IMG/VR virus record: IMGVR_UViG_2534681672_000004
Reading direction: 5' to 3' (one strand)
Length of the DNA: 33,568 nucleotides
Source of the DNA: a virus
Lineage: Duplodnaviria > Heunggongvirae > Uroviricota > Caudoviricetes
In this document: in pieces, positions 7,408-33,568 of the stretch
Layout: the number at the start of each line of letters is the position of its first letter
Position numbering within the stretch: the stretch's first letter is position 1
Program-made: the position numbers and the translations under genes
Notes under the pieces: model-generated
What the model was told of the DNA's origin: nothing
Database searches by the model: none
The model's input: only the letters and a program-made list of their open reading frames with translations

Positions 7408-7986
7408 TCAGGGTTCGCCGGTGGCTGACACAACGGGATTTGTCGCCGGAAATTTTTTATACAGCGTCGATATGCCCACATCAAAAATCAGTGCAACACG
7501 CTGTCGGGATTCTCCGGCCGCAATCAACCGGCCAGCCTGAGCCCATTCATCAGGCGTCAGCTTCGGCCTACGACCTCCGATCCTGCCTTGTGCCCGGGCT
7601 GCATCCAGCCCGGCGCGGGTTCGTTCGACGATTAACTCGCGTTCCATTTCTGCAAGAGCGCCCATGATGTGAAAGAAAAATCGCCCCATCGGGGTTGAGG
7701 TATCAATACTGTCGGTCAGGCTTCTGAAATTAACCCCTCGCTGGCGAAGCTCTTCAGTCATAGAGACAAGATGGCGCATGCTACGCCCGAGCCTGTCGAG
7801 CTTCCAGACAACGAGAGTATCACCGGCATTAAGTTGCCTGAGTGCGCGATTTAACCCTGGCCTGTTTGTCGATTTACCGCTGATTTTATCCTCGAAAATT
7901 AGCTCACATCCCGACCGTTCCAGCGCGTCACGCTGTAGCGCGGTATTTTGTTCATTTGTTGATACGCGCACATAGCCAACCTGCAT
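7408..7986 (-). CDS. Serine-recombinase DNA invertase (Hin/Gin/Cin/Pin family)
   Basis: N-terminus MQVGYVRVSTNEQNTALQRDAL... with catalytic-Ser motif; C-terminal HTH (GESRQRVALIFDVGISTLYKKF); GAGGGA RBS before ATG at 7986; sits beside an invertible tail-fibre segment. Confidence 0.9.
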   Translation of the reverse strand: MQVGYVRVSTNEQNTALQRDALERSGCELIFEDKISGKSTNRPGLNRALRQLNAGDTLVVWKLDRLGRSMRHLVSMTEELRQRGVNFRSLTDSIDTSTPMGRFFFHIMGALAEMERELIVERTRAGLDAARAQGRIGGRRPKLTPDEWAQAGRLIAAGESRQRVALIFDVGISTLYKKFPATNPVVSATGEP

Positions 7987-8040
7987 TTGTTTTCCCTCAT
8001 GCAAAAGCCCAAATGATGCCAGCTAGGGGGGAAAACTACA

Positions 8041-12369: not shown

Positions 12370-13007
12370 TTCGTGCCCTCCGTCCAGGCTCCACCTCTTT
12401 GCACACCGCCGTGACCGTGGCTGTCGACCTGAACGCCGTTGGATTTAAACGTACCGTCGGTGTGTTCGATGTTTCCGCGCATGGTGCCGCCTTGTTGTAC
12501 CTCAAGCGTCGCCGTCGTCAGTTTGTTGGTGCAGACCACTTCCGGTGTATCGAGGGTGATGCGGGTCTCGGCTTTCACCGTCACCAGCGGTACCGTCGCG
12601 GTGATGGAATCCGACGCCGTAACGTCTGCGGTTTTAATGCCGCTCACGGTCAGCGCGCCGGTCTCCGGCTCGTACTCGATAACAGCCCCATCAGGAAAGG
12701 TGATGTGAAAAGCATCAGCCGACGCCGACGGCGCGGGGTGGTCATCCGAAAAAATGCCGGGCAGCACAAAAGCGGTGTCGAGTTCACCACCCACGGCCAG
12801 CAGTAAAACCTGCTCGCCCACAGACGGAGCCCACCAGACACGTGAACGACCGGCGCGTGTGGTCAGCCACTGAAGCCAGTCGGTAACAATGCCGCCAGTC
12901 TGGACGCGACAGCGCCCGTCATCGAGGTCAACTTCGACGACGACGCCGGTACGTATCAGGTTGCGAAGGAGGCGTAAAGCGTCCTGAAGAGTTGCGCGAG
13001 TATTCAT
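12366..13007 (-). CDS. V: Baseplate spike/hub protein gpV
   Basis: Start at internal ATG 13007 (MNTRATLQDALRLLRNLIRTGVVVEVDLDDGRCRVQTGG...), which closely parallels the P2 gpV N-terminus as recalled. Confidence 0.85.
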   Translation of the reverse strand: MNTRATLQDALRLLRNLIRTGVVVEVDLDDGRCRVQTGGIVTDWLQWLTTRAGRSRVWWAPSVGEQVLLLAVGGELDTAFVLPGIFSDDHPAPSASADAFHITFPDGAVIEYEPETGALTVSGIKTADVTASDSITATVPLVTVKAETRITLDTPEVVCTNKLTTATLEVQQGGTMRGNIEHTDGTFKSNGVQVDSHGHGGVQRGGAWTEGTK

Positions 13008-13083
13008 ACAAGGAAGGATGCCGCCCGGTGCTCTGGACGGCAATTAATGCGGGTTTTACCAGATATGGCACAACATACAAAAA

Positions 13084-14427
13084 CTAGCTTGGGGTAACTG
13101 TAACCTGACGAGAAAAAACAACAGGCTCCTTCAATTGCTCACATATAATTTTAAAATTAATAACTCCAGAGCCAATCGTTAAGGGAATGATGACTATTTC
13201 CTCATACTCAACAGTTAAGCTCTGTAACACTTTTTTCGCACGCAACGTGATTTTATGGTCCTCTTTCATGACCCACTCATCTTGGTTAACTGTTCCTAAA
13301 TCAGCCATCCGTTTAATTATTGCTGGCACTTCGAAATGAGGTTTAGCCATTACCATCGATGTATCATCAAAAATACCCATCCTAAAATTTTCGAGTGACA
13401 TTATAGCACTGAGTCTTTTTTTATGCTTACTTATTGGGGACTCAGGGATTTTTAATTTCGGCTCTTTTATAAATAAGTCTTCATTAGAACCTTTAAGCAC
13501 TATTAGGAATTCAGGAAAATCAATCTCAACATAAACATTTGACGCAAAAGTCCTCCCATTATTTCTTAAAACGGGCTTCACTGTAATTGCATTGTTTTTG
13601 TAATTACAGTGCAATCTCATTTTTTTATTATATAAATCCACATCTTTATCAGTAGGCAGTGAAGAGTTATATGATTCAATCTCATCAATGGTGATAGTGT
13701 CCTTCAACTCAAGAGGTACCGCTTCCTTGCATAGTTGTGGAAGGTAATCCTGATAAGTCGACTCCACATCCACCGTCAAAGCTAAGTCATTATCAATCAT
13801 GCTCAGCTCTAATTGAGGTGCATCGCTATGTAATTGGCTTTCATATTCGCGGACTTTTTCCCTTAATTTTCTATTTTCATTAGATAGCTCAGCCAACTCG
13901 GCGGTAATCTCTTTAGATGCGACCTGGTCACCGCGCACCCATCCTATTCGTGGATTTCGTCGCATTACTTTTGGTAAGGCGATAGCAACCTTCGTCGCTA
14001 ACTCATCAATTGTCTCCCAAAAATCACACATTTTGTTAGCTTTAGCTTTTTCAATAAAAGCATTTAGTTGCTTTTCTTTTTGAGGGTCACTTTCTCGTTC
14101 ATGTGGTTTTGTTAAAACGTCCCTCCCTCTAATAAAAGCCAACACCGGTATATTTAATGATTTAGCATAGTTATATTCCATTTCAGTATAGCTAATACCA
14201 TCTTTAGAAACGGACCCATACTTATGCCCAATGATAATCACATAATAATCACTAGCATCAATAGTCTCCTTTATTATATCCCACTGCTCAGAGTCATCAG
14301 CGCTAAACATCTCCATGCCAACTGGAAAGTGGTATAAACTAAGGACCGTTTCTATGATTTTTTTGCGAGCATCAATTAAATCGACGTATGTAGAGCTCAC
14401 AAATACTTGATATTTTTTATTTTCCAT
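13084..14427 (-). CDS. AT-rich cargo protein with N-terminal DUF4062-like (TIR/SLOG-like Rossmann) motif, central coiled coil and uncharacterised C-terminal domain; candidate anti-phage/accessory gene
   Basis: Start at ATG 14427 (MENKKYQVFVSSTYVDLIDARKK...) with GAGGA RBS. The VF-SST..DL...R and YYVIIIGHKYG motifs match my recollection of DUF4062. Inserted between S and V, which are adjacent in P2; strongly AT-rich by eye. Confidence 0.65.
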   Translation of the reverse strand: MENKKYQVFVSSTYVDLIDARKKIIETVLSLYHFPVGMEMFSADDSEQWDIIKETIDASDYYVIIIGHKYGSVSKDGISYTEMEYNYAKSLNIPVLAFIRGRDVLTKPHERESDPQKEKQLNAFIEKAKANKMCDFWETIDELATKVAIALPKVMRRNPRIGWVRGDQVASKEITAELAELSNENRKLREKVREYESQLHSDAPQLELSMIDNDLALTVDVESTYQDYLPQLCKEAVPLELKDTITIDEIESYNSSLPTDKDVDLYNKKMRLHCNYKNNAITVKPVLRNNGRTFASNVYVEIDFPEFLIVLKGSNEDLFIKEPKLKIPESPISKHKKRLSAIMSLENFRMGIFDDTSMVMAKPHFEVPAIIKRMADLGTVNQDEWVMKEDHKITLRAKKVLQSLTVEYEEIVIIPLTIGSGVINFKIICEQLKEPVVFSRQVTVTPS

Positions 14428-14464
14428 AACATCCTCACTTGTATAGAAAATAAAATACATAAAA

Positions 14465-14932
14465 TCAATCAATAGATCTAGCCGCCTCAGCTAAAGAAAC
14501 CATAATTATGTCATGAATCATATTTTTTGATTCATGATCAAACCCGATAAGCATTCGGGCGTCATACTGTACCGGCGCACTGTTTCGCCCAGGCTTATCT
14601 TTGAGACCGTACTGATGCACATTCGCCATCCGTTGTACCTTGCCGGTAAATTCCACGACCGCCGAGTCATTCCCCGCTGTGGCTTTCATAAAGCGACTGG
14701 TGCGGAGCTTAGCGAACATTTCCCGCTTAACCCGGCCTGTTTTGGCTTTTACCGGCTGGCGTTTTCGGGCGGCGTAAGGTGTCCCGTCCGGGGCTTTCTG
14801 CATTTTAATCCGGCGCTGTTGACGGGCTCGCAGGGTCTTAGCGATATCTGCGGCCATTCTGCGACGGGCGGCAGGAGACAGCGCTGCTATCAGCCCCGTG
14901 AGCGTATCGTCAAAGGGTTTAAAGTCATTCAT
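14465..14932 (-). CDS. S: Tail completion protein gpS
   Basis: 155-aa ORF following R; size and order match P2 S. Confidence 0.85.
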   Translation of the reverse strand: MNDFKPFDDTLTGLIAALSPAARRRMAADIAKTLRARQQRRIKMQKAPDGTPYAARKRQPVKAKTGRVKREMFAKLRTSRFMKATAGNDSAVVEFTGKVQRMANVHQYGLKDKPGRNSAPVQYDARMLIGFDHESKNMIHDIIMVSLAEAARSID

Positions 14933-20278: not shown

Positions 20279-20442
20279 GAGTCAGGTGTCCTGAGTTGGG
20301 TTATCGGGTCGGTTGTAGTTTCCCGACTCAGCCGCTCACCAGCCACCGGTTACAGAAGTGCAACCCCTGACACAACAGGGGGTTAGCGATTCATCCCCCC
20401 TGAATCTTTAGCCTTGCCGTGTACTCATCACGGCGAGGTTTT

Positions 20443-22212
20443 ATGACCACTACAACCGACACATCACTACTCAACGATCCGCGACGACAGGCCGCGCTTT
20501 TGTTCTGGCAGGGCTATTCCGTGCCACAAATCGCGGAACAGTTGCAGGTCAAGCGCCCCACGGTGCAGAGCTGGAAGCAGCGCGATAAATGGGAAAAAAC
20601 CGCACCGTTAAACCGGGTCGAGTTCACGCTCGAGGCTCGGCTGATTCAGCTCTATGCAAAGCCTGACCTGACGGCTCATGACTTTAAGGTCGCGGATTTT
20701 CTGGCGCGCCAGATGGAACGCCTCGCGCGGGTCAGTCGTTACGGTCAGACAGGTAACGCAGCGGATTTAAACCCGAACGTGGCCAACCGCAACAAAGGGG
20801 AAAAGAAGAAGCCGAAAAAGAACTTTTTCAGCGAAGAGGCTATCGACAAGCTCGAAGAGATTTTCCTCGACCAGTCTTTCGACTATCAGCTCGAGTGGTG
20901 GCGCGCGGGGCTGGCGCACCGTATCAGGCACATCCTGAAATCACGACAGATTGGAGCGACATTCTACTTTGCGCGAGAGGCGCTGTTACAGGCGCTGAAG
21001 ACCGGCCACAACCAGATATTTTTATCGGCCAGTAAGACACAGGCCTATGTATTTCGAAAATACATCATCGCCTTTGCCCGACTGGCTGGCGTCGAGCTCA
21101 CCGGCGACCCGATTGTGCTCGGCAACAATGGCGCGGAGCTGATGTTTCTCGGCACCAATGCCAACACGGCGCAGAGCCACAACGGCGACCTGTATGTCGA
21201 TGAAATTTTCTGGATCCCCAACTTCCAGAAGCTGAAGCGCGTTGCCGGTGGCATGTCTTCACAGGAGCATTTGCGCACGACCTATTTTTCGACCCCCTCA
21301 TCGCTGGCGCACGGTGCCTATCCGTTCTGGTCGGGTGAGCAGTTCAACAAGGGACGCTCAGACAAGAGCGAGCGCGTCGATATCGATATCAGTCACGCAG
21401 CACTCGCGAAGGGTGTCGCTTGCCCGGACGGCCAGTGGCGGCAGATTGTCACCATCGAGGACGCACTCGCTAAAGGGTGCACACTGTTTAACATCGACAC
21501 GCTGAAGCGCGAGAACAGCGTCGATGAGTTCCGTAATCTGTTTATGTGCGAGTTCGTCGACGATAAAGCGTCGGTATTCCCGTTCGAAGAGCTGCAACGC
21601 TGCATGGTCGACAGCCTCGAGAAATGGGAGGACTACACGCCATTTGCCGACCGGCCTTTCGGTCACCGCCCGGTGTGGATTGGTTACGACCCGTCATTAC
21701 GCGGCGACAGCGCCGGGTGCGTCGTCATCGCGCCGCCAGTCGTCGCCGGTGGACGATTCCGAATCCTCGAGCGCCATCAGTGGAAAGGGATGGATTTTGC
21801 TCAACAGGCCGAATCCATTCGCGAGCTCACGCAGAAATATACCGTCGAATACATCGGCATCGATGCGACCGGGCTCGGACAGGGCGTTTTCCAGTTAGTG
21901 CGCTCATTCTACCCGGCAGCGCGTGAAATCCGCTACACGCCGGAAATGAAAACCGCAATGGTGCTGAAAGCCAAAGACACCATTCGCCGCGGTTGCCTCG
22001 AGTACGACGTCAGCGCGACCGATATCACGCAGTCGTTTATGTCTATCCGCAAAACCATGACCAGCAGCGGGCGCAGCTCGACCTATGAGGCCAGCCGCAC
22101 CGAGGAAGCCAGTCACGCCGATCTCGCGTGGGCAACCATGCACGTATTAATCAATGAGCCGCTGACCGCCGCGACCGGCGAACAGTCATCCAGTATTATG
22201 GAGTGGAACTAA
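20443..22212 (+). CDS. P: Terminase large (ATPase) subunit gpP
   Basis: Start at ATG 20443 with GGCGAGG RBS; about 590 aa; divergent from O and followed by Q as in P2. Confidence 0.9.
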   Translation: MTTTTDTSLLNDPRRQAALLFWQGYSVPQIAEQLQVKRPTVQSWKQRDKWEKTAPLNRVEFTLEARLIQLYAKPDLTAHDFKVADFLARQMERLARVSRYGQTGNAADLNPNVANRNKGEKKKPKKNFFSEEAIDKLEEIFLDQSFDYQLEWWRAGLAHRIRHILKSRQIGATFYFAREALLQALKTGHNQIFLSASKTQAYVFRKYIIAFARLAGVELTGDPIVLGNNGAELMFLGTNANTAQSHNGDLYVDEIFWIPNFQKLKRVAGGMSSQEHLRTTYFSTPSSLAHGAYPFWSGEQFNKGRSDKSERVDIDISHAALAKGVACPDGQWRQIVTIEDALAKGCTLFNIDTLKRENSVDEFRNLFMCEFVDDKASVFPFEELQRCMVDSLEKWEDYTPFADRPFGHRPVWIGYDPSLRGDSAGCVVIAPPVVAGGRFRILERHQWKGMDFAQQAESIRELTQKYTVEYIGIDATGLGQGVFQLVRSFYPAAREIRYTPEMKTAMVLKAKDTIRRGCLEYDVSATDITQSFMSIRKTMTSSGRSSTYEASRTEEASHADLAWATMHVLINEPLTAATGEQSSSIMEWN

Positions 22213-23240
22213 TGAGCAAGAATCGCAACAACAAGCGACAGCAGCCGCGCCCCCAAAGTCACACCGCCGCATCGGCACAGAGCATGGAGGCATTCACCTT
22301 TGGCGAGCCGACGCCGGTACTCGATCGCCGCGACATTCTCGATTATGTGGAGTGCATCGACAACGGCCAATGGTATGAGCCGCCGGTGAGCTTCTCCGGG
22401 CTGGCGAAGAGCATGCGCGCCGCCGTTCATCACAGCTCACCGATTTACGTGAAGCGTAATATTCTGGTGTCGACCTACATCCCGCACCCGCTGTTATCGC
22501 GTCAGGATTTCAGCCGGTTCGTGCTCGATTATCTGGTATTTGGCAACGCCTTTCTCGAAGAGCGTCGCGGTCTGACTGGCAAGCCGCTAAAGCTGGAGAC
22601 CTCACCGGCCAAATATACCCGTCGTGGCGTTGATGATGACGTGTACTGGTATATCCAGTCCTACACGCAACCGCACCAGTTTTCGCCCGGTTCCGTCTTC
22701 CACCTGCTTGAGCCTGATATTAATCAGGAGCTGTACGGGATGCCGGAATACCTGAGCGCACTCAATTCAGCCTGGCTGAATGAGTCAGCGACACTGTTTC
22801 GTCGCAAGTATTACCAGAACGGCGCGCACGCAGGGTACATCATGTATGTGACCGATGCCGCTCAGAACAGCACTGACGTCGAAGCGTTGCGAAAGGCGAT
22901 GCGCGACTCGAAAGGGCTCGGCAATTTTAAGAATCTGTTTTTCTACGCACCGCACGGTAAACCGGATGGGATTAAAATTGTGCCGCTGAGCGAAGTCGCG
23001 ACGAAGGATGATTTTTTTAATATCAAGAAAGTCAGCGCCGCTGACCTGCTCGACGCGCACCGCATCCCGTTCCAGTTGATGGGCGGCAAGCCTGAGAACG
23101 TCGGCTCAGTGGGCGATATTGAGAAAGTGGCAAAAGTATTTGTTCGCAATGAATTAACTCCATTGCAAGATAGGATTCGTGAATTAAATCATTGGTTTGG
23201 TGATAATTTAATTAAGTTCAAGCCGTATACCTTTGATTAA
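22212..23240 (+). CDS. Q: Portal protein gpQ (last ~35 codons AT-rich, possibly chimeric)
   Basis: ATG 22212 overlaps the P stop (TAATG); about 342 aa, close to P2 Q length. Confidence 0.9.
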   Translation: MSKNRNNKRQQPRPQSHTAASAQSMEAFTFGEPTPVLDRRDILDYVECIDNGQWYEPPVSFSGLAKSMRAAVHHSSPIYVKRNILVSTYIPHPLLSRQDFSRFVLDYLVFGNAFLEERRGLTGKPLKLETSPAKYTRRGVDDDVYWYIQSYTQPHQFSPGSVFHLLEPDINQELYGMPEYLSALNSAWLNESATLFRRKYYQNGAHAGYIMYVTDAAQNSTDVEALRKAMRDSKGLGNFKNLFFYAPHGKPDGIKIVPLSEVATKDDFFNIKKVSAADLLDAHRIPFQLMGGKPENVGSVGDIEKVAKVFVRNELTPLQDRIRELNHWFGDNLIKFKPYTFD

Positions 23241-23256
23241 GTATGAATGCAAAAAA

Positions 23257-23286
23257 TCCAGAGTCCATTATAATAATGACTCTGGA
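23257..23286. terminator. Hairpin terminator between convergent Q and the cargo operon
   Basis: Perfect 9-bp stem TCCAGAGTC...GACTCTGGA with an AT-rich loop; on the minus strand it is followed directly by TTTTTT, so it probably terminates the cargo operon. Confidence 0.5.
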
Positions 23287-23296
23287 TGAAAATGTT

Positions 23297-23983
23297 TTAT
23301 TGCTTATCTTGTGGTGGTGGAACCTCTTTTTCTAAATTATCTACATACTCTCTAATATTGAATGCTTTGTTTTTCCTTATTTCGGTAGTGTTAACCTTAC
23401 TAACACCATCACGAATGTTTTTATTTATGGTGTCTATTAATTTTTGTCTTTCTTGTTCTGTTTTTATTATTTCACTTAAGAATGACTTTGCGTTTCTTGA
23501 AATGTCCGTCTGTCTATTAATGAATAGTATCGCATACACTGAAAAAACCAAGCAAGTAGTCGTTAGTGCGGAATTAAAAAATACCCCATAATAAACATTA
23601 ACTTTTGTTATTGACGCTGATAACGTTAGTGATATCAAAAAAAACAAAATCAGGGTAAAAATATATGCAATGGTTACTTTGTTTTTAGTGGTGTCAAGAA
23701 TGTATGAAGTTCTTTGATCATCAAAGTAATCCTTTATCCTTGATGGAGTGTTTGCGGGGAGTTCTAACTCCTTTATTTTATCATCAGCATCAATTAGTCG
23801 CTTAAACATGAGGCTAATGATTACGGCGCTAAAGACAGAGATCCCCTTTGAAATTATAGGATCGAAATCAATTAAAAATGAGTATTTTGAATAAACAAAA
23901 ACAATAACAAAACCACATATAAGCCCAATTACAATTGAGCTTGCTATGTTTTTTGCATATGTTTGTAACGTATTGTTTATCAT
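23297..23983 (-). CDS. Four-TM membrane protein, second gene of an AT-rich two-gene cargo operon (candidate effector)
   Basis: Four hydrophobic helices followed by a charged C-terminal tail; ATG overlaps the upstream gene's TGA (ATGA coupling); strongly AT-rich. Confidence 0.7.
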   Translation of the reverse strand: MINNTLQTYAKNIASSIVIGLICGFVIVFVYSKYSFLIDFDPIISKGISVFSAVIISLMFKRLIDADDKIKELELPANTPSRIKDYFDDQRTSYILDTTKNKVTIAYIFTLILFFLISLTLSASITKVNVYYGVFFNSALTTTCLVFSVYAILFINRQTDISRNAKSFLSEIIKTEQERQKLIDTINKNIRDGVSKVNTTEIRKNKAFNIREYVDNLEKEVPPPQDKQ

Positions 23984-24963
23984 GGGTTAATTACTCCGGT
24001 GTCTAGTAAGCGCAATAACCATGAAATCATTTCTTCAGCAACGTTGTCAGCAATTAGCATTCCATTGCTGTATTCAATATTAACTGAATCCTTTAGTTGA
24101 ATCTCATCATTCCTGAGTATTCCTGCACCTTTTAACTCAATTGTTAAGCTTTCATCTCTATTATCAACCAAGCCTTGTGTAATTTTACGCAACATGTCTT
24201 GCTCAGACTCGCTTGCTTTATATTTATACCCAATGGAAATATCAATTGATAGAGATTCCCTGTCAGGTGAACCATCATTTAAAATGGTATTTTTCTTCAT
24301 TTCATTAATTCGATGTTCACCTACGAGCGTTTTTAATAGCTCACTAGCTGTATCATCAATATTATTTCCATAGTAGGTTAAAGGCAGCTTTAAGCTAACA
24401 TTTTTTACTATGTTACGTTTTAAAAAATCCGTATTTAGAGACAGGTTGTTTGCCTGTAAAACGATGAAGTTATCATCAGTAATAGATAGGTTGTCTTGTA
24501 GTATGAAATTTATATAATTTTCAATATCTTTTATTCTAATAGATCTGCTTTGCAGAATTATGAAGTGGTTCTTAATCACACCAATGTATGCAATGCTTTC
24601 TAAATACTCTCTAGCATTCCCACTTGATAAATTTAATGTCTCGTATGTTAAAGCTGTTTTAGCATAATCGCTAACAGAGAAAACAGGAATGCTACTACCC
24701 GGTTCAATATAGACAATTTCCGCAAAAAACATTCCATGAATTTCTTTGCTATTTGAAAGAACCATGTGGGCGTGAGCAGCGACATTACCATTATTATCTG
24801 GAACATCAGGGAAGAATAATCTATCAGCAACATTTGGAACCTTGATTTTCACAAGGTTTGCCAACCTATCTTGCAGGTTTGATGTTAAAAGAGCATCCTT
24901 TTTAGGAAGCATTATTGCATGGCGATAATGCAGCATTTTACTCTTATAATCTTGCGTTGCCAT
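23980..24963 (-). CDS. Hypothetical cytoplasmic protein, first gene of the AT-rich two-gene cargo operon (candidate sensor/enzyme)
   Basis: 327-aa ORF with GAGGGA RBS before ATG 24963; no motif I can recognise; between portal gene Q and cos. Confidence 0.7.
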   Translation of the reverse strand: MATQDYKSKMLHYRHAIMLPKKDALLTSNLQDRLANLVKIKVPNVADRLFFPDVPDNNGNVAAHAHMVLSNSKEIHGMFFAEIVYIEPGSSIPVFSVSDYAKTALTYETLNLSSGNAREYLESIAYIGVIKNHFIILQSRSIRIKDIENYINFILQDNLSITDDNFIVLQANNLSLNTDFLKRNIVKNVSLKLPLTYYGNNIDDTASELLKTLVGEHRINEMKKNTILNDGSPDRESLSIDISIGYKYKASESEQDMLRKITQGLVDNRDESLTIELKGAGILRNDEIQLKDSVNIEYSNGMLIADNVAEEMISWLLRLLDTGVINP

Positions 24964-25034
24964 AGAATCCCTCTTGCTATGAATATGTTATACACGGAGC
25001 GAAGCAATTATGTATTGTATTGCTCTGGCGCGCA

Positions 25035-25053
25035 ATGCTATCCCCGCCACGCC
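25035..25053. other. cos site (19-nt cohesive-end sequence, 186-like)
   Basis: Minus-strand reading GGCGTGGCGGGGATAGCAT differs at one position from the phage 186 cohesive end as I recall it (GGCGTGGCGGGGAAAGCAT); P2 is GGCGAGGCGGGGAAAGCAC. Confidence 0.6.
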
Positions 25054-25334
25054 TGCCCGCTTTATGGGGCGGTTTTAATGCAGTTGCATGACCACTCTGG
25101 ATACGCGCCAGCTGTGGCGGCACACGGCTAGAACGTGCAACCCATGTCGCATGCAAAATCATGCGCCTGATGCATGCACAGCTAAAAAACGGGAAATTCG
25201 TGGAAAAATGGCATAAAAAACGACTTTGAAAGTGCCGGCCATGGTCAGATTTTCAAGGGCAGGCTAACGCCTCGCGCGGCTCGTTGTTCAAACCCGCTGA
25301 CGCCAAAATCTAGTTTTTGCATCAGCGCGTTTAC

Positions 25335-25517
25335 CTATTCAGCCTTATAGAAAATTTCGTCTTTTTCTTCGTCGCTTTCGCTGTTAGCTAGGCCGGCAAT
25401 CAGAGTTAGTGCCAGCTTCAAATCTGCCGGTTTGCAGTTGGCAATAAGAGATATCTCGGCGATAAATTGCACACAAGCCCACTTTTGCTGCGTTCGGCTG
25501 AAATGTTTCCCAACCAT
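25335..25517 (-). CDS. Small SOS-regulated protein, possible Tum-like antirepressor
   Basis: 60-aa ORF with GGGAGGG RBS; a near-consensus LexA box lies about 20 bp upstream; position downstream of A matches tum in phage 186. Confidence 0.5.
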   Translation of the reverse strand: MVGKHFSRTQQKWACVQFIAEISLIANCKPADLKLALTLIAGLANSESDEEKDEIFYKAE

Positions 25518-25537
25518 GAAATCCCTCCCAATAGGAT

Positions 25538-25557
25538 TACTGTGTATTTATACAGTA
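25538..25557. promoter_or_regulatory. LexA operator (SOS box)
   Basis: TACTGTGTATTTATACAGTA matches the E. coli LexA consensus TACTGTATATATATACAGTA at 18 of 20 positions, with perfect CTGT-N8-ACAG. Confidence 0.8.
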
Positions 25558-25706
25558 TAACGTATTGGCAAAAGATGGGAAGAGAAAAAGTGAATCGGGT
25601 AGGTGTTGTATGTACATGATATGGATGTAAATTAATCACCTGTGAGTTTTGATGTTTCTGCCAGCACCGCAACACGATTAAGGATTTCCCTAGGCTTTGC
25701 CTGAAG

Positions 25707-27854
25707 CTATGGCGCTGCGGAGAAAATTTCACCTTTGGACGTTCCACGCAACCATTTACCGTTAATACAACTTTTGCCACCTGCTATCAGGTGCAGGGCT
25801 TCTCCCCGGCTGATGGTAATGCCGGTTGTCAGACGGATCTCGTCGATAGTTTTTTCTATCGGAGCACTTTGCTCATCTGTTCCGTGGATAAATTTCGGCC
25901 TCTTAGGTGGCTTTGGTTTCCTGATTCGGTTCGTCAGCTCTCGCCTTTCACGTCGACTCAGGGGTTTTGATAAATCGAGTTCCGGTGGATCGCTTTCGCT
26001 TCCCGTACAGTTATTGACAGAACTCCAAGGGACGGCGAAGCCGTCCTTAACGTCAACGGCCAAATCAACGGCACGCTTCGGAACAATTTTCCATTGCGTG
26101 AGCCGGGTTAAAATCGGAGTGCCAACACCAACGGTGGAGTCGTACACACCACGAATGCAGACAGTTTCCTCACCATACTGGTTAAACTCGGTGCGCGGTT
26201 CATAAAGCGTACGCACCTGCAAATCATCGCGACGGACAAACGGACCGCCCTGCGCATTAACATAGCCAGCCCAATCACCGGCATCGGCGGCATCATGGAC
26301 AGCCGCAAACTCAACACTTAGACCGTGCGCGGTCTCGGTATCTGCAAGGCGACGCAATTCACGATAAACAGTCACTGGTGCACCACCGATAAACTGAAAC
26401 TGACGAATATGCCAGCGCGCCGCCCATGCTGAAACGGCGGGGGCTGTCTCTTTCAACAGTTCACCGTTTTCGTCATCGGTTTCGTCATCAAGAGCGTAAC
26501 CGTCGATATTTTTCGAGATGTATTTCGCGACGTAGCCGGTTGCGCTGCCTTTCTCCGGATCAATGGCTTCTGCGTGGAAACGTGCTTTTTTGGCTTTATC
26601 GCTTTTGAGTTCGTGAAAATCTTCTTGCCATGCGTAGTCCCGAATAATGCCACGAACGGTATCGACGTCCTCCGGGAGCATAAACATCAGCATATGCCAG
26701 TGAGGGCACCCGTCATGGTGAGGCTCTGCAACGCGGATCCCGAAAATACGAATGTCTTCACGGTGGAGTTTTGCGCGAATGCGTGCCCACAGGCCAGTGA
26801 GATAACATTGCGTATCGGATGGATTGGATCCATTCCATTTGGTGTTACGGTAGCCTGCCTTTGTCGTGGCGTGATATTTAGACGGTGCGGTCAGGGTGTA
26901 AAACTCACCAACATAACCGAGCTCATTGCAGATATTTTCAAACCCACGAATGCGGGTCATAAGCTCACAGCGTCGAATCGCAGAGTTAGCGACTGAACCA
27001 TCGTATTTTTCAATCAGGCTGATACGGTTGCCGTCTTCGTCTTCAAGCTCCAGACCTTTGAGAAATTCGCGCGTCCGGCGCTTCTGTTCACGCCAGTCTG
27101 TCACGCAGTTTTTACTCGCGTAGACATGTTTTTTCTTACTGACATTTCCGATTGCGATTTGCAGGTGTTCGCGCCACGCAGCCGCAATGCGACGCAGACG
27201 GCCACGCCACCATTTTTCCGAAAACATACGGGCAATTGCTGGAGCGACTTTATCCTGATCCCAATATTTATCCCGCGACCGTTCCCACTCTGGTGGCATT
27301 ATCCTGAATTGCTGAGTGATGAAACCAGCATGCATATACCAGGCATTTAATGTCTCCAGTTCACACATGTCAGAATCGTCAATGTTGACTAACTCTGCAC
27401 GGATAAAATCGGCGATATCAGCAGCCAGCAGGTCGATGTCGGCGCGTGCCATATCCGGGAGTCGGTTGTATCTGGCGACTATGTTGACCATGCGAGACGC
27501 CAGATATTGCATAAGCTGAGTATCGAAATGACAACCGAAAACAGCGGCTGATACGTTGCTGTTAATACCGGTACACTCGTATTTTTTTGCGACCAGTTCA
27601 AAACGCGGCAATGCCTTTTTGCAGAAGCTTATTAAAAAAGCATTGGCTCGTTGACTGCCCTGATTTTGCTCCAGCACCGCAGCAGTGCGATAAACGTCAA
27701 AACGTACACACTCGGGCTGGAGGGAAAGCACCTTTCTAGCATGCAGCAAAGCCGCGAGCATACGGTCGCGGCGATACTGTTGGTCGTAGGTAAGATATGG
27801 ACTGGCTATTGCCGACCGTGGAGCATTCCACGGAAACGCGAATTGAACAGCCAA
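25707..27854 (-). CDS. A: Replication initiation protein gpA (rolling-circle initiator)
   Basis: 715-aa ORF; region ...IRVAEPHHDGCPHWHMLMFM... and ...YVAKYISKNIDGY... with the active-site Tyr context characteristic of P2/186 A. Confidence 0.9.
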   Translation of the reverse strand: MAVQFAFPWNAPRSAIASPYLTYDQQYRRDRMLAALLHARKVLSLQPECVRFDVYRTAAVLEQNQGSQRANAFLISFCKKALPRFELVAKKYECTGINSNVSAAVFGCHFDTQLMQYLASRMVNIVARYNRLPDMARADIDLLAADIADFIRAELVNIDDSDMCELETLNAWYMHAGFITQQFRIMPPEWERSRDKYWDQDKVAPAIARMFSEKWWRGRLRRIAAAWREHLQIAIGNVSKKKHVYASKNCVTDWREQKRRTREFLKGLELEDEDGNRISLIEKYDGSVANSAIRRCELMTRIRGFENICNELGYVGEFYTLTAPSKYHATTKAGYRNTKWNGSNPSDTQCYLTGLWARIRAKLHREDIRIFGIRVAEPHHDGCPHWHMLMFMLPEDVDTVRGIIRDYAWQEDFHELKSDKAKKARFHAEAIDPEKGSATGYVAKYISKNIDGYALDDETDDENGELLKETAPAVSAWAARWHIRQFQFIGGAPVTVYRELRRLADTETAHGLSVEFAAVHDAADAGDWAGYVNAQGGPFVRRDDLQVRTLYEPRTEFNQYGEETVCIRGVYDSTVGVGTPILTRLTQWKIVPKRAVDLAVDVKDGFAVPWSSVNNCTGSESDPPELDLSKPLSRRERRELTNRIRKPKPPKRPKFIHGTDEQSAPIEKTIDEIRLTTGITISRGEALHLIAGGKSCINGKWLRGTSKGEIFSAAP

Positions 27855-30273: not shown

Positions 30274-30815
30274 ATGAGTGTTAAAAAACTGACATCGGGT
30301 GAATGGCTTTGTGATTTCCGCGTCGACGGGGCTGAAAGTCGCCGCGTGCGTAAGAAGTTTTCAACCAAAGGTGAAGCCGTTGCCTTCGAGCAGTATTACC
30401 GAGAAGAGGCACAAAATAAGCCGTGGATGGGTGAGAAGGAAGACCGTCGACGTTTGAGTGAACTGATTGAGCTGTGGCATAACCTCCATGGCCAGTCGCT
30501 CGCTGCCAGCAAATCGCGATTGGCCAAACTGCACATTGTTTGCCGGGGTCTTGGCGACCCAATCGCTACCCAGCTTACCGCCAAAGATTTCGCCCATTAT
30601 CGGGATAAACGTCTCAAGGGTGAAATCGACAATGGCTATCACGCAAATTCTGAAAAGTGGATTGCGAAACCTGTGACTGTGAACCGGGAACAACAGTACC
30701 TCGAAGCTGTTTTCAATGAGCTGAAGCGCTTGGGTGAGTGGAGTCTGCCAAATCCTCTCGAAGGTGTGCGAGTTTTCAAAGAAGCCGAAAAAGAAATGTC
30801 TTGGCTTACCCAGCC
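30274..30815 (+). pseudogene. int: Integrase, N-terminal fragment (interrupted by IS10)
   Basis: Reading frame ends ...KEMSWLTQP then a stop created inside the IS10 end; continues in frame at 32145 once IS10 and one target-duplication copy are removed. Confidence 0.85.
30807..30815. repeat. IS10 target-site duplication, left copy (TACCCAGCC)
   Basis: Identical 9 bp immediately flank both IS10 ends. Confidence 0.85.
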
Positions 30816-30860
30816 CTGATGAATCCCCTAATGATTTTGGTAAAAATCATTAAGTTAAGG

Positions 30861-30930
30861 TGGATACACATCTTGTCATATGATCAAATGGTTTCGCGAA
30901 AAATCAATAATCAGACAACAAGATGTGCGA
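30861..30930 (-). ncRNA. IS10 RNA-OUT antisense RNA (approximate position)
   Basis: Placed from established IS10 organisation (pOUT transcript antisense to the 5' end of tnp, near the outside end); coordinates not read from the sequence. Confidence 0.4.
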
Positions 30931-32131
30931 ACTCGATATTTTACACGACTCTCTTTACCAATTCTGCCCCGAATTACACTTAAAACGACTCAACAGCTTA
31001 ACGTTGGCTTGCCACGCATTACTTGACTGTAAAACTCTCACTCTTACCGAACTTGGCCGTAACCTGCCAACCAAAGCGAGAACAAAACATAACATCAAAC
31101 GAATCGACCGATTGTTAGGTAATCGTCACCTCCACAAAGAGCGACTCGCTGTATACCGTTGGCATGCTAGCTTTATCTGTTCGGGCAATACGATGCCCAT
31201 TGTACTTGTTGACTGGTCTGATATTCGTGAGCAAAAACGACTTATGGTATTGCGAGCTTCAGTCGCACTACACGGTCGTTCTGTTACTCTTTATGAGAAA
31301 GCGTTCCCGCTTTCAGAGCAATGTTCAAAGAAAGCTCATGACCAATTTCTAGCCGACCTTGCGAGCATTCTACCGAGTAACACCACACCGCTCATTGTCA
31401 GTGATGCTGGCTTTAAAGTGCCATGGTATAAATCCGTTGAGAAGCTGGGTTGGTACTGGTTAAGTCGAGTAAGAGGAAAAGTACAATATGCAGACCTAGG
31501 AGCGGAAAACTGGAAACCTATCAGCAACTTACATGATATGTCATCTAGTCACTCAAAGACTTTAGGCTATAAGAGGCTGACTAAAAGCAATCCAATCTCA
31601 TGCCAAATTCTATTGTATAAATCTCGCTCTAAAGGCCGAAAAAATCAGCGCTCGACACGGACTCATTGTCACCACCCGTCACCTAAAATCTACTCAGCGT
31701 CGGCAAAGGAGCCATGGGTTCTAGCAACTAACTTACCTGTTGAAATTCGAACACCCAAACAACTTGTTAATATCTATTCGAAGCGAATGCAGATTGAAGA
31801 AACCTTCCGAGACTTGAAAAGTCCTGCCTACGGACTAGGCCTACGCCATAGCCGAACGAGCAGCTCAGAGCGTTTTGATATCATGCTGCTAATCGCCCTG
31901 ATGCTTCAACTAACATGTTGGCTTGCGGGCGTTCATGCTCAGAAACAAGGTTGGGACAAGCACTTCCAGGCTAACACAGTCAGAAATCGAAACGTACTCT
32001 CAACAGTTCGCTTAGGCATGGAAGTTTTGCGGCATTCTGGCTACACAATAACAAGGGAAGACTTACTCGTGGCTGCAACCCTACTAGCTCAAAATTTATT
32101 CACACATGGTTACGCTTTGGGGAAATTATGA
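30923..32131 (+). CDS. tnp: IS10 transposase
   Basis: 402-aa protein MCELDILHDSLYQFCPELHLKRLNSLTLACHALLDCKTLTLTELGRNLPTKARTKHNIKRIDRLLGNRHL..., recognised as IS10 transposase from memory. Confidence 0.95.
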   Translation: MCELDILHDSLYQFCPELHLKRLNSLTLACHALLDCKTLTLTELGRNLPTKARTKHNIKRIDRLLGNRHLHKERLAVYRWHASFICSGNTMPIVLVDWSDIREQKRLMVLRASVALHGRSVTLYEKAFPLSEQCSKKAHDQFLADLASILPSNTTPLIVSDAGFKVPWYKSVEKLGWYWLSRVRGKVQYADLGAENWKPISNLHDMSSSHSKTLGYKRLTKSNPISCQILLYKSRSKGRKNQRSTRTHCHHPSPKIYSASAKEPWVLATNLPVEIRTPKQLVNIYSKRMQIEETFRDLKSPAYGLGLRHSRTSSSERFDIMLLIALMLQLTCWLAGVHAQKQGWDKHFQANTVRNRNVLSTVRLGMEVLRHSGYTITREDLLVAATLLAQNLFTHGYALGKL

Positions 32132-32144
32132 GGGGATCTCTCAG

Positions 32145-32153
32145 TACCCAGCC
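32145..32153. repeat. IS10 target-site duplication, right copy (TACCCAGCC)
   Basis: Identical to 30807-30815. Confidence 0.85.
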
Positions 32154-32649
32154 TCAAATTCGCGAAGTGCTCAATGCTTGTGAGTCATACGGGAAAATTT
32201 ATTTAACCCGTATCGTCAAAGTGTGCTTAGCGACTGGTGCTCGATGGAGCGAGGCCGAGCGTCTTACTCGTTCACAGCTTTCACCCCACAAGTTGACTTT
32301 CACTAAAACGAAGGGAAAGAAGAATCGTACAGTACCGATCCCTCGGTGGCTATATGACGAGTTGGCTCCTTTACAGGGAAAAATGTTCCACCCCTGCTAT
32401 CAGGAGTTCAAGAAAATGCTCGCTCTGACCGATATAGAGTTAGCTGAAGGGCAAAAAACGCATGTGTTACGTCATACATTTGCGAGTCACTTTATGATGA
32501 ATGGTGGGAACATTTTAGTACTGCAACGAATCTTGGGCCATTCTAACATTAGGGAAACCATGAGATACGCTCATTTTGCACCAGATCATTTAGAAGAAGC
32601 TGTAACTCTTAACCCTATTTCTAATTTAACAGGATTATATGATGAGTGA
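32145..32649 (+). pseudogene. int: Integrase, C-terminal catalytic fragment (tyrosine recombinase)
   Basis: Contains ARWSEAERL, HVLRHTFASH and RETMRYAHF (R...HxxR...Y catalytic residues); in frame with the N-terminal fragment across the IS10 junction (...TQP|QIREVL...). Confidence 0.85.
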
Positions 32650-33568
32650 GCCAACCATCGAAACACCTCCAAGAATGACCGAGGCCAAAGTCATTAGGGT
32701 ACGCACTCGTGGTTTTTATAATTTAGTTGAGATAGGTGCAGTCTTTCTAGTTGCAAATGTAATTTTTGCTACAGGGATATTAGACTCAACCTTTTATTAT
32801 TTATTTCCCAGTGCGAGAGCAGATCTTACACATTTGCCGAGCTTTATCAGGTCAATATTCGCAGTGTCATTTGTAATCGTTTACACCATTATCTATGGTG
32901 TGTCTCCAATCCAAAGAATGTTTATGAGAATTACAGGGAGTGATTCAGTCGACAAATCATCGATGTTTAATATTGTCGATATTATAAATGAGATAAAACT
33001 ACTCAAGAAGGCTCAAGAGGAAAGGGCTGCTGCTGATGAAGATGAATCTCTGGATTTTTATCTTAAAGGTTTGATTAATAGCTCTGAAGGTCTTGCGAAA
33101 AACATATATTCTCGCGGTAGTCTTTATTTATTAGTCGGTGTTTGTTTTGCAATAGTTGGATTAGGTTTCTTCTATTCTCAATCACATGTAATTGATGCTA
33201 AGGATGATGCGGTAACCAAGGTAATGTATCTTCTCCCTAATTTTGGCGTGTTGATTTTCTTGGAGTTAATCGCATTTTTCTTTTTGAAGCAATATCGGGT
33301 TACGATGGATGAGTTTCGCTATTACGAGGCAATAAAACGTTCACGTGAGGAAAGCTATGCCATTATAAAGCTTGTAATGGCTAGCCAGAAAGATATCGAT
33401 ATGATAGACCTTCTGGATAAAATTAATTTTAGCTCAAGAGTTGGAAAACTAGAATCAGGGCAGACTACTGAAATTATTGAAGCAAGAAAATTAGACAAAA
33501 ATGAACTTGAAACCTTAGTAAAGCTTACCGAGGCAGTTGCGGGTAAGATTGGACAGGGAAATAAGTAG
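32639..33568 (+). CDS. AT-rich four-TM membrane protein with a long C-terminal soluble region, overlapping the int 3' end; candidate lysogen-expressed accessory/exclusion gene
   Basis: 309-aa ORF whose ATGATG start overlaps the int stop by 11 nt; four hydrophobic helices; same strand as cI-int and sharply AT-rich. Confidence 0.6.
   Translation: MMSEPTIETPPRMTEAKVIRVRTRGFYNLVEIGAVFLVANVIFATGILDSTFYYLFPSARADLTHLPSFIRSIFAVSFVIVYTIIYGVSPIQRMFMRITGSDSVDKSSMFNIVDIINEIKLLKKAQEERAAADEDESLDFYLKGLINSSEGLAKNIYSRGSLYLLVGVCFAIVGLGFFYSQSHVIDAKDDAVTKVMYLLPNFGVLIFLELIAFFFLKQYRVTMDEFRYYEAIKRSREESYAIIKLVMASQKDIDMIDLLDKINFSSRVGKLESGQTTEIIEARKLDKNELETLVKLTEAVAGKIGQGNK

Follow-up and report, generated by a model that had tools for sequence, protein, structure and literature searches.

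Where does a cargo module end and the conserved backbone of a P2-like phage begin? The question is raised by a DNA stretch of 33,568 nucleotides (IMG/VR record IMGVR_UViG_2534681672_000004; the whole stretch is here called the window), which is a complete P2/186-like (Peduoviridae) prophage of Escherichia coli in reverse orientation. Genes rich in adenine and thymine (AT-rich), here called cargo, adjoin its portal gene Q, its tail-completion gene S and its integrase gene int. An initial annotation proposed that the 3' ends of Q and int, and possibly of S, turn abruptly AT-rich where they meet the cargo, and that the cargo had been acquired by recombination inside these gene ends, replacing the C-termini. 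The results presented here suggest that the ends of Q, S and int belong to the cargo modules and were swapped together with the cargo by homologous recombination at the last conserved block of each gene, a reading given a probability of about 0.75.

Breaks and homologous tails at the ends of Q, S and int

The junction in Q and the DNA up to the cohesive-end site (cos) contain the following features.

22203 to 23240, plus strand (RefSeq start 22212): portal gene Q, Pfam domain Phage_portal, with a body of backbone composition rich in guanine and cytosine (GC)
23119 to 23152, plus strand: last strongly conserved nucleotide block of Q, encoding EKVAKVFVRNE; putative left crossover zone
23153 to 23240, plus strand: AT-recoded, homologous tail of Q, LTPLQDRIRELNHWFGDNLIKFKPYTFD plus stop, assigned to the cargo module
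23256 to 23287, no strand: hairpin with a 10-bp stem (free energy -17.8 kcal/mol, z -5.1), an inverted repeat between the convergent Q and cargo genes
23297 to 23983, minus strand: cargo gene 2, 228 amino acids, four hydrophobic segments by hydropathy; putative membrane partner
23980 to 24963, minus strand: cargo gene 1 (c327), 327 amino acids, phrog_3482; its structural model resembles lambda RexA
24964 to 25021, no strand: upstream region of the cassette, reaching the right composition and homology junction
25022 to 25053, no strand: conserved cos flank (13 nucleotides) and 19-nucleotide cohesive end, the right anchor of the module

Q is 79–81% identical in amino acids to Q of P2, 186 and PSP3, and is labelled portal in E. 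coli PCN033. Its maximum-likelihood change point lies at 23116, 125 nucleotides before the end of the stop codon, where GC falls from 0.56 to 0.30; this position, like the other change points given here, is a composition estimate with a precision of ~10–20 nucleotides. The log-likelihood ratio is 14.5 on Q alone and was matched by 0 of 1000 shuffles. GC at third codon positions (GC3) drops from 0.685 in the gene body to 0.265 over the final 34 codons, and the AT-rich stretch runs on into the cargo. None of 1198 backbone windows of 105 nucleotides is as low as the Q tail at GC 0.314 (backbone mean 0.563, minimum 0.39). The abrupt shift described for Q and its continuity with the cargo are therefore borne out, and the peptide quoted for it is the true C-terminus.

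S and int each have a tail of their own beside cargo.

14465 to 14542, minus strand: AT-recoded, homologous tail of S, at the end of the gene (14465–14932) and adjoining the DUF4062 cargo
13084 to 14472, minus strand (RefSeq start 14427): DUF4062 cargo gene between S and V, named from its Pfam domain
32584 to 32649, plus strand: AT-coded integrase tail after YAHFAP, overlapping the start of the next open reading frame (ORF)
32639 to 33568, plus strand: AT-rich ORF of 309 amino acids at the int-to-host junction, GC 0.37; cargo at the site between int and the attachment site (att)

The break suspected in S is present as well, with a change point at 14543, inside the gene, and a GC3 of 0.594 in the body vs. 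0.259 in the tail (1 of 1000 shuffles). In the C-terminal part of int taken alone (32128–32649) the drop in GC is gradual and the within-gene change point is not significant (159 of 1000 shuffles). GC3 is nonetheless 0.10 in the 21-codon tail vs. 0.46–0.48 in the body, and 0.13 in the last 15 codons vs. 0.46. The objection that the shift might prove insignificant when computed thus fails for Q and S, while for int the shift inside the gene is not significant by itself and the claim draws on a cargo-linked pattern among 77 int loci. As judged from sequence, the int case appears real on the comparative survey, and is weak in the window alone.

The tails are not foreign proteins. The Q tail aligns over nearly its full length with Q of P2, 186, PSP3 and 720R8, keeping the conserved residues and stopping 3–4 residues short of their ends. 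The residues N-E-L-T-P-L-Q are common to the window and E. coli MRSN346638, yet 7 of 7 codons differ, being A/T-ending in the window and G/C-ending in MRSN346638. The S tail is likewise homologous to P2 S and to the 186 S homologue at the protein level and uses AT-ending codons. For int, L322 and L323 both encode DHLEDAVTKNPL, one of them with A/T-ending codons and the other with G/C-ending ones. These comparisons indicate that the tails are no new sequence: they are C-termini homologous to those of Q, S and Int, written in A/T-ending codons. The proposal that C-termini were replaced by recombination inside gene ends hence stands as to the intragenic junction, and requires correction in that the replacement is a homologous tail and not unrelated cargo sequence. 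Conservation of the tails in cargo-free relatives, which might have spoken against it, does exist for the protein while the DNA and its synonymous sites differ. It does not refute the idea, because what replaces the tail is a homologous tail with foreign codon usage. By hand count, the window's Q tail matches the tails of other enterobacterial clades at 62–66% and that of its own backbone clade at 52%, and would therefore have been imported.

Aligning the gene with its orthologues, as the initial annotation had suggested, locates the collapse of identity. Homology to MRSN346638 and ~40 similar E. coli records stops at 23143–23152, at the end of the EKVAKVFVRNE block. The columns of this 34-nucleotide block are near-invariant in a five-phage alignment, and across 97 canonical Q genes it forms the final local maximum of conservation, beyond which conservation in the 3' half is at its lowest. 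MRSN346638 is the closest canonical backbone, with a Q that is ~91% identical in nucleotides, a tail of normal GC and a GC-rich terminator. Its cos lies 175 nucleotides past the Q stop, and its cargo (an acyltransferase) is on the far side of cos. In the window the AT-rich block spans 23116–25021, and ~1.9 kb of AT-rich DNA stands in place of ~290 nucleotides comprising the Q tail, terminator and spacer. The canonical hairpin of the terminator tQ, found in P2, 186 and PSP3, is missing, and the hairpin at 23256–23287 is a candidate to replace this GC-rich structure as a bidirectional terminator.

On the right, the change point is at 25022 and homology to relatives restarts near 25021–25025. The cos flank is supported by alignment of the window with 186, PSP3 and MRSN346638. 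The 19-nucleotide P2-type cohesive-end sequence, GGCGTGGCGGGGATAGCAT, occupies 25035–25053, and the right end of phage 186 aligns from 25054. Cargo boundaries within core genes, as opposed to intergenic DNA, are consequently found on one side only. The left boundary of the Q cargo is inside Q and the right one is 13 nucleotides from cos; for the S cargo, one boundary is in S and the other is at 13042–13043 (change point 13042), upstream of the RefSeq start of V at 13007.

No target-site duplication and no terminal direct or inverted repeats were found bounding the Q-cos block, and neither cargo protein has a transposase or recombinase domain in Pfam. Since no repeats bound the block, insertion of a transposon or integron-like element was rejected; a homing-endonuclease model was rejected too, as the cargo has no nuclease domain.

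Alternative tail and cargo alleles in related phages

The survey of the Q-cos site covered 80 IMG/VR loci plus 72 scorable ones from a GTDB set with one genome per species, with cos placed by a consensus pattern. Tails were defined as AT-shifted when their GC3 was at least 0.2 below that of the gene body. Canonical loci have 149–215 nucleotides from the Q stop to cos and a tail GC3 close to that of the body (median difference +0.03), while 34 loci have more than 800 nucleotides between Q and cos. An AT-shifted Q tail occurs in 11 of these 34 cargo loci vs. 0 of 110 canonical loci (Fisher 3e-8). Ten different gene sets are present among 15 loci examined in detail. The left change point lies -91 to -131 nucleotides from the Q stop in six loci, where four unrelated gene sets are represented along with two diverged forms of the window's cassette. 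Elsewhere the junction falls within the final ~10 codons or past the stop. The right change point is 7–23 nucleotides from cos in most loci. If the in-gene junction was expected to be general, it turns out to be frequent and not universal, occurring at roughly one in three Q-cos cargo loci and two in three S-V cargo loci.

Closely related elements carry different alleles. Loci L343 and L009 are 92.9% identical in the Q body and 91.6% in the cos flank, with nothing alignable between. Both carry homologues of the window's cassette, with protein identities of only 73% and 48%, and their AT-rich Q tails differ from each other, each having a GC3 of 0.32. More widely, relatives with gene bodies that are 93–97% identical have tails that are ~49–56% identical or unalignable, each with different cargo. 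Tail and cargo therefore appear to be exchanged as one unit, because near-identical backbones carry different tail-plus-cargo alleles. The window's own Q tail and cargo are found at 99.9% identity in 13 of 5,426 complete E. coli genomes. Locus L008 has P, Q, tail, cassette and cos in common with the window, and its A gene is unrelated (34% identity). On a reading of the sequences, similarity between L008 (5600–5910) and the window (25054–25700) is lost ~50 nucleotides beyond cos. Cos would then be a short stretch of conserved sequence bordered left and right by exchange points.

The S-V site behaves similarly in 75 scorable loci. Without cargo the S-V gap is ~93 nucleotides, and the DUF4062 cargo occupies the same site as orf30 of P2. 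AT-shifted S tails are present in 18 of 28 cargo loci vs. 2 of 47 without cargo (Fisher 2e-8), and in 18 of the 28 the change point is at most 14 nucleotides from the L[LI]GF motif of S. Between L100 and L101 the S body is 96.7% identical, the tail 49% and the V side 92.5%; between L150 and L152 the values are 94.4%, 55.6% and 93.3%. A comparison of L100 with the window-type locus L098 gives 94.1%, 49% and 95.3%, with unrelated cargo.

Only ~76 nucleotides (13007–13084) separate the DUF4062 stop from the annotated start of V, with the composition boundary at 13042 between them. The V start is so near the cargo boundary that the V late promoter would lie partly in cargo-derived DNA. A scan for Ogr-type TGT-N12-ACA sites gave chance-level matches only, none of them upstream of V.

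Among the 77 scorable int loci, the tail after YAHFAP has a GC3 of 0.27 or less in 18, and 17 of these 18 lead into DNA of GC 0.25–0.39. Where the predicted prophage ends right after int (26 loci), a tail GC3 below 0.39 is found in 0 of 26. In the window, the 309-residue ORF overlaps the int stop by 11 nucleotides.

Explanations for the AT-rich gene ends

Composition breaks, tail homology, alternative alleles on near-identical backbones and recurrent breakpoints are all observed in these loci, and from them we infer that homologous recombination is responsible. Related phages would exchange the cargo of the three hotspots Q-cos, S-V and int-att through a pair of crossovers. The first would fall where the upstream core gene has its final conserved block, namely EKVAKVFVRNE for Q, L[LI]GF for S and YAHFAPDHLE for Int. 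The second would occur in a conserved non-coding anchor, which for Q would be the cos core, starting 13 nucleotides from the cut site, and for S and int cargo the region upstream of V, or att. One allele would move whole, comprising the last 25–35 codons, the terminator and the cargo genes. As the tail must still form a working C-terminus, the protein would stay Q-, S- or Int-like while its codons share the AT-richness of the cargo. Exchange of this kind would explain the sharp breaks, the conservation of the proteins, the alternative alleles, the recurrent breakpoints and the absence of scars.

Several points weigh against this reading. No recombination event was observed directly, and a junction could in principle have been made once and then inherited. 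P2 is classically poor in general recombination. The EKVAKVFVRNE block is not the most conserved stretch of Q, and roughly two in three Q-cos cargo loci have their junction at the stop or past it, making an intragenic crossover one route among several. Furthermore, the survey loci were not dereplicated, are not phylogenetically independent and come from partly overlapping collections.

It may instead be that a P2-like phage living in an AT-rich host recently donated both tail and cargo, and that the tail keeps the codon usage of this donor, which we consider unlikely. Had the tail been imported recently from a relative of different composition, a sharp break and lost nucleotide homology would be expected, and the Q tail does appear imported and not derived from its own clade. 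However, no AT-rich donor phage emerged. In 50,697 phage records the best tails are enterobacterial and P2-type, at 74% over 42 amino acids, with a Mannheimia phage tail reaching only 47%. In one genome per GTDB species, searched with a 59-residue Q end, the best matches are at 80% over 59 amino acids in Raoultella and Escherichia, with Photorhabdus at 57–60%. A protein search with a 45-residue Q tail returned short fragments only, of 64–78% identity, and located no donor, and a degenerate DNA pattern for the exact Q tail peptide matched only the same phage in IMG/VR. P2-like Q genes in lower-GC hosts (Photorhabdus, Yersinia) have a GC3 of 0.53–0.62, far above the 0.26–0.32 of the tails. The cassette family also stays at GC 0.33–0.36 in the four elements measured, from Aeromonas, Vibrio, Enterobacter and E. 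coli, although their flanks are at 0.44–0.60; the genes in the window are at 0.31–0.34.

An improbable account is that the gene ends became AT-rich in place, through selection that recoded them for signals of the cargo such as a promoter, ribosome-binding site, terminator or H-NS nucleation site. The S stop lies 37 nucleotides upstream of the DUF4062 RefSeq start and the int stop overlaps the start of the 309-residue ORF, so that any promoter or ribosome-binding site of this cargo must lie in the tails. Regulatory recoding could therefore contribute at S and int. The Q cargo does not fit, as it is convergent and ends at its own hairpin in a 57-nucleotide spacer, yet ~90–125 nucleotides of Q are AT-rich, and a promoter scan found no promoter-like site in the Q tail. 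Recoding in place would also keep the backbone's own tail, whereas the window's tail is nearer to those of other clades and nucleotide homology collapses at the junction. Lastly, an illegitimate foreign insertion that made a new, unrelated C-terminus, the literal sense of replacement, would account for a tail composition continuous with the cargo, but has next to no chance of being correct, being refuted by protein alignments in which the tails match P2 and 186 orthologues nearly full length with only the last few residues differing, and leaving no target duplication or terminal repeats.

Exchange of tail and cargo by homologous recombination leaves the origin of the AT-richness as a separate matter, and here too we infer the cause. 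The evidence favours, without proving, an AT bias maintained within the module over an origin in an AT-rich genome. That the AT-richness of cargo is maintained where the cargo resides, and not inherited from AT-rich donors, is a tentative and rather doubtful proposal. In every P2-like phage sampled, the Q body has a GC3 of 0.53 or more. The Q tail evolves only inside such phages, yet tails are at ~0.3, which argues for maintenance in place. Cargo-linked tails keep a GC3 of ~0.3 despite their divergence (~50% in amino acids for tails, 30–73% for cassette proteins), consistent with a regional force. Synonymous sites must be saturated across tail alleles so diverged, and a regional AT force that stops exactly at the last recombining block fits this picture. 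One candidate is that allele-specific DNA is excluded from GC-biased gene conversion and is subject to a general AT mutational bias. Another is selection for AT-rich DNA over the whole module, for example for H-NS silencing.

The cassette, its prophage and known hotspots

The two genes of the Q-cos cargo overlap on the minus strand and are convergent with Q. Pfam, PADLOC, NCBIfam and PHROGs gave no function or family for the pair, which has no match to known defence families. A profile search of PDB sequences with the cargo returned nothing, as did a scan of the c327 alignment over one genome per species, and no mention of the protein accessions was found in the literature. Foldseek matched the c327 model to RexA (8twq) with an E-value of 3e-5 and a probability of 1.0, at a template-modelling (TM) score of 0.37–0.43 and with a mean model confidence (pLDDT) of only 66. 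The likeness to lambda RexAB lies in a prophage-encoded, overlapping gene pair whose first product has a predicted RexA-like fold and whose second is small with four hydrophobic segments, as in RexB. It differs in the absence of sequence similarity, in the modest fold match and in a partner of 228 amino acids compared with 144 for RexB. On the strength of this model the cassette is a candidate for an uncharacterised RexAB-like exclusion or defence system, a lead and not a finding.

The pair also stays together in other settings, namely further P2-like Q-cos sites, the psu-int interval of a P4-like satellite from Enterobacter, an Aeromonas locus next to a P4-type primase, and an element from Vibrio. 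A homologue of cargo gene 2 always follows that of c327 in other elements. The two-gene units, with a partner of ~225 amino acids, lie at 23297–24963 in the window, 5001–6643 in L341, 5001–6661 in L338, 5001–6631 in L340 and 5001–6658 in L343. Its presence in the P4-like psu-int hotspot and other mobile elements is an indirect hint, and no more, that the cassette may have a defence role. In the Enterobacter satellite (L341 4588–4620), a reading of the sequence places the start of AT-rich DNA ~14 nucleotides past the cos 19-mer, compared with 13 in the window (25022–25053), and TGCGCGC is shared. The satellite's cassette starts ~395 nucleotides from cos and agrees with the window's in both side and orientation. 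From these sequences, a common cos anchor for P2 and P4 hotspots is possible. The promoter scan found no site upstream of the cassette start. The sole nearby site starts inside c327, and there are fewer sites than in shuffles.

The identity of the prophage follows from its ORF map and Pfam domains, which give the P2 gene order of portal Q, terminase P, GPA replication protein, CI repressor and integrase, and from its DNA matches, which are Peduoviridae phages. After Q come the AT-rich two-gene block, cos, replication gene A, cI and an integrase gene split by an insertion sequence (IS). Three further genes have these positions.

761 to 1075: ogr, at the start of the late genes, which run via D to P and Q
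20419 to 22212: terminase gene P, the late gene preceding Q
25707 to 27854: replication gene A, beyond cos

In E. coli PCN033 the same element is located between yfiB and rplS with int intact, and the AT-rich ORFs at both ends (1–723 and 32639–33568 in the window) are inside the yfiB-rplS insertion. These end ORFs, beyond ogr and beyond int respectively, would flank the attachment site in the circular phage. In the window, the integrase gene (30274–32649) is interrupted by an IS element with a DDE_Tnp_1 transposase at 30923–32131. Because of this interruption, the window's copy is probably unable to excise by its own integrase. Gene A of PCN033 (L006 14533–16755, corresponding to window 25632–27854) is a RefSeq pseudogene with an internal stop, and the longest A ORF in the window has 715 amino acids and a TTG start. 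A Hin/Cin-type invertase gene (7408–8004) adjoins oppositely oriented tail-fibre C-terminal and tail-fibre assembly genes. The segment 7408–9527 resembles the invertible host-range segments of Mu (G) and P1 (C), and occupies the place where P2 has Z/fun.

The hotspots themselves are known. A diversity and defence hotspot between gpA and gpQ, adjoining cos, has been described in P2-like phages (Rousset et al. 2022, PMC9122126; Moura de Sousa et al. 2026, PMC13586616). Hotspots at int-att and at tail genes are also listed (PMC13586616), and swapping through cos ends and a homologous crossover has been proposed (PMC9122126). The window fits the gpA-gpQ definition, as it has variable, compositionally foreign genes between Q and A beside cos; both have AT-rich variable genes at this place that are rapidly swapped between otherwise similar phages. 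Those studies define sites by the flanking core genes and do not separate the two sides of cos, whereas in the window the cargo is on the Q side of cos with its left junction inside Q. Hotspots and recombinational swapping are thus established, while breakpoints inside Q, S and int and recoded tails are not mentioned in PMC9122126 or PMC13586616. The term 'GC content' is absent from both, and 'breakpoint' from PMC13586616.

The unit resembles a moron in being compositionally distinct, with a candidate terminator of its own, between genes that are adjacent in relatives, and in its proposed exchange via short conserved sequences. Mosaic junctions and morons are reportedly due to Hendrix, Juhala and colleagues, recombination at conserved 'linkers' to Susskind and Botstein, and relaxed homologous recombination to De Paepe et al. 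2014. Going by its title, Dodd and Egan 1996, which is cited in PMC5694545 and PMC6868368, is said to concern retrons Ec67 and Ec86 that replace DNA between cos and a terminator in a 186-related prophage. The classical moron is cleanly intergenic and leaves both flanking genes intact, whereas the block in the window replaces the last ~29 codons of Q, tQ and the spacer, and so contains a functional, homologous piece of the upstream core gene. Of the other moron traits, it has the distinct composition and a strong hairpin after the cassette, and has no promoter-like site upstream of the cassette start.

These results offer a sequence-level picture of how cargo and defence genes may be swapped at P2 hotspots, the mechanism of which was left open in PMC9122126 and PMC13586616. 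The exchanged unit would start at a conserved block within the core gene upstream and end at an anchor that is likewise conserved, for instance cos. Hotspots defined by gene boundaries would leave out some of the DNA that is exchanged. Cargo boundaries in P2-like prophages could be mapped by looking for a GC3 break within Q, S or int, and the tails are best left out of portal, S and integrase phylogenies. The recoded tails also provide a controlled comparison, with the same protein segment in two compositional regimes, that bears on why accessory DNA is AT-rich.

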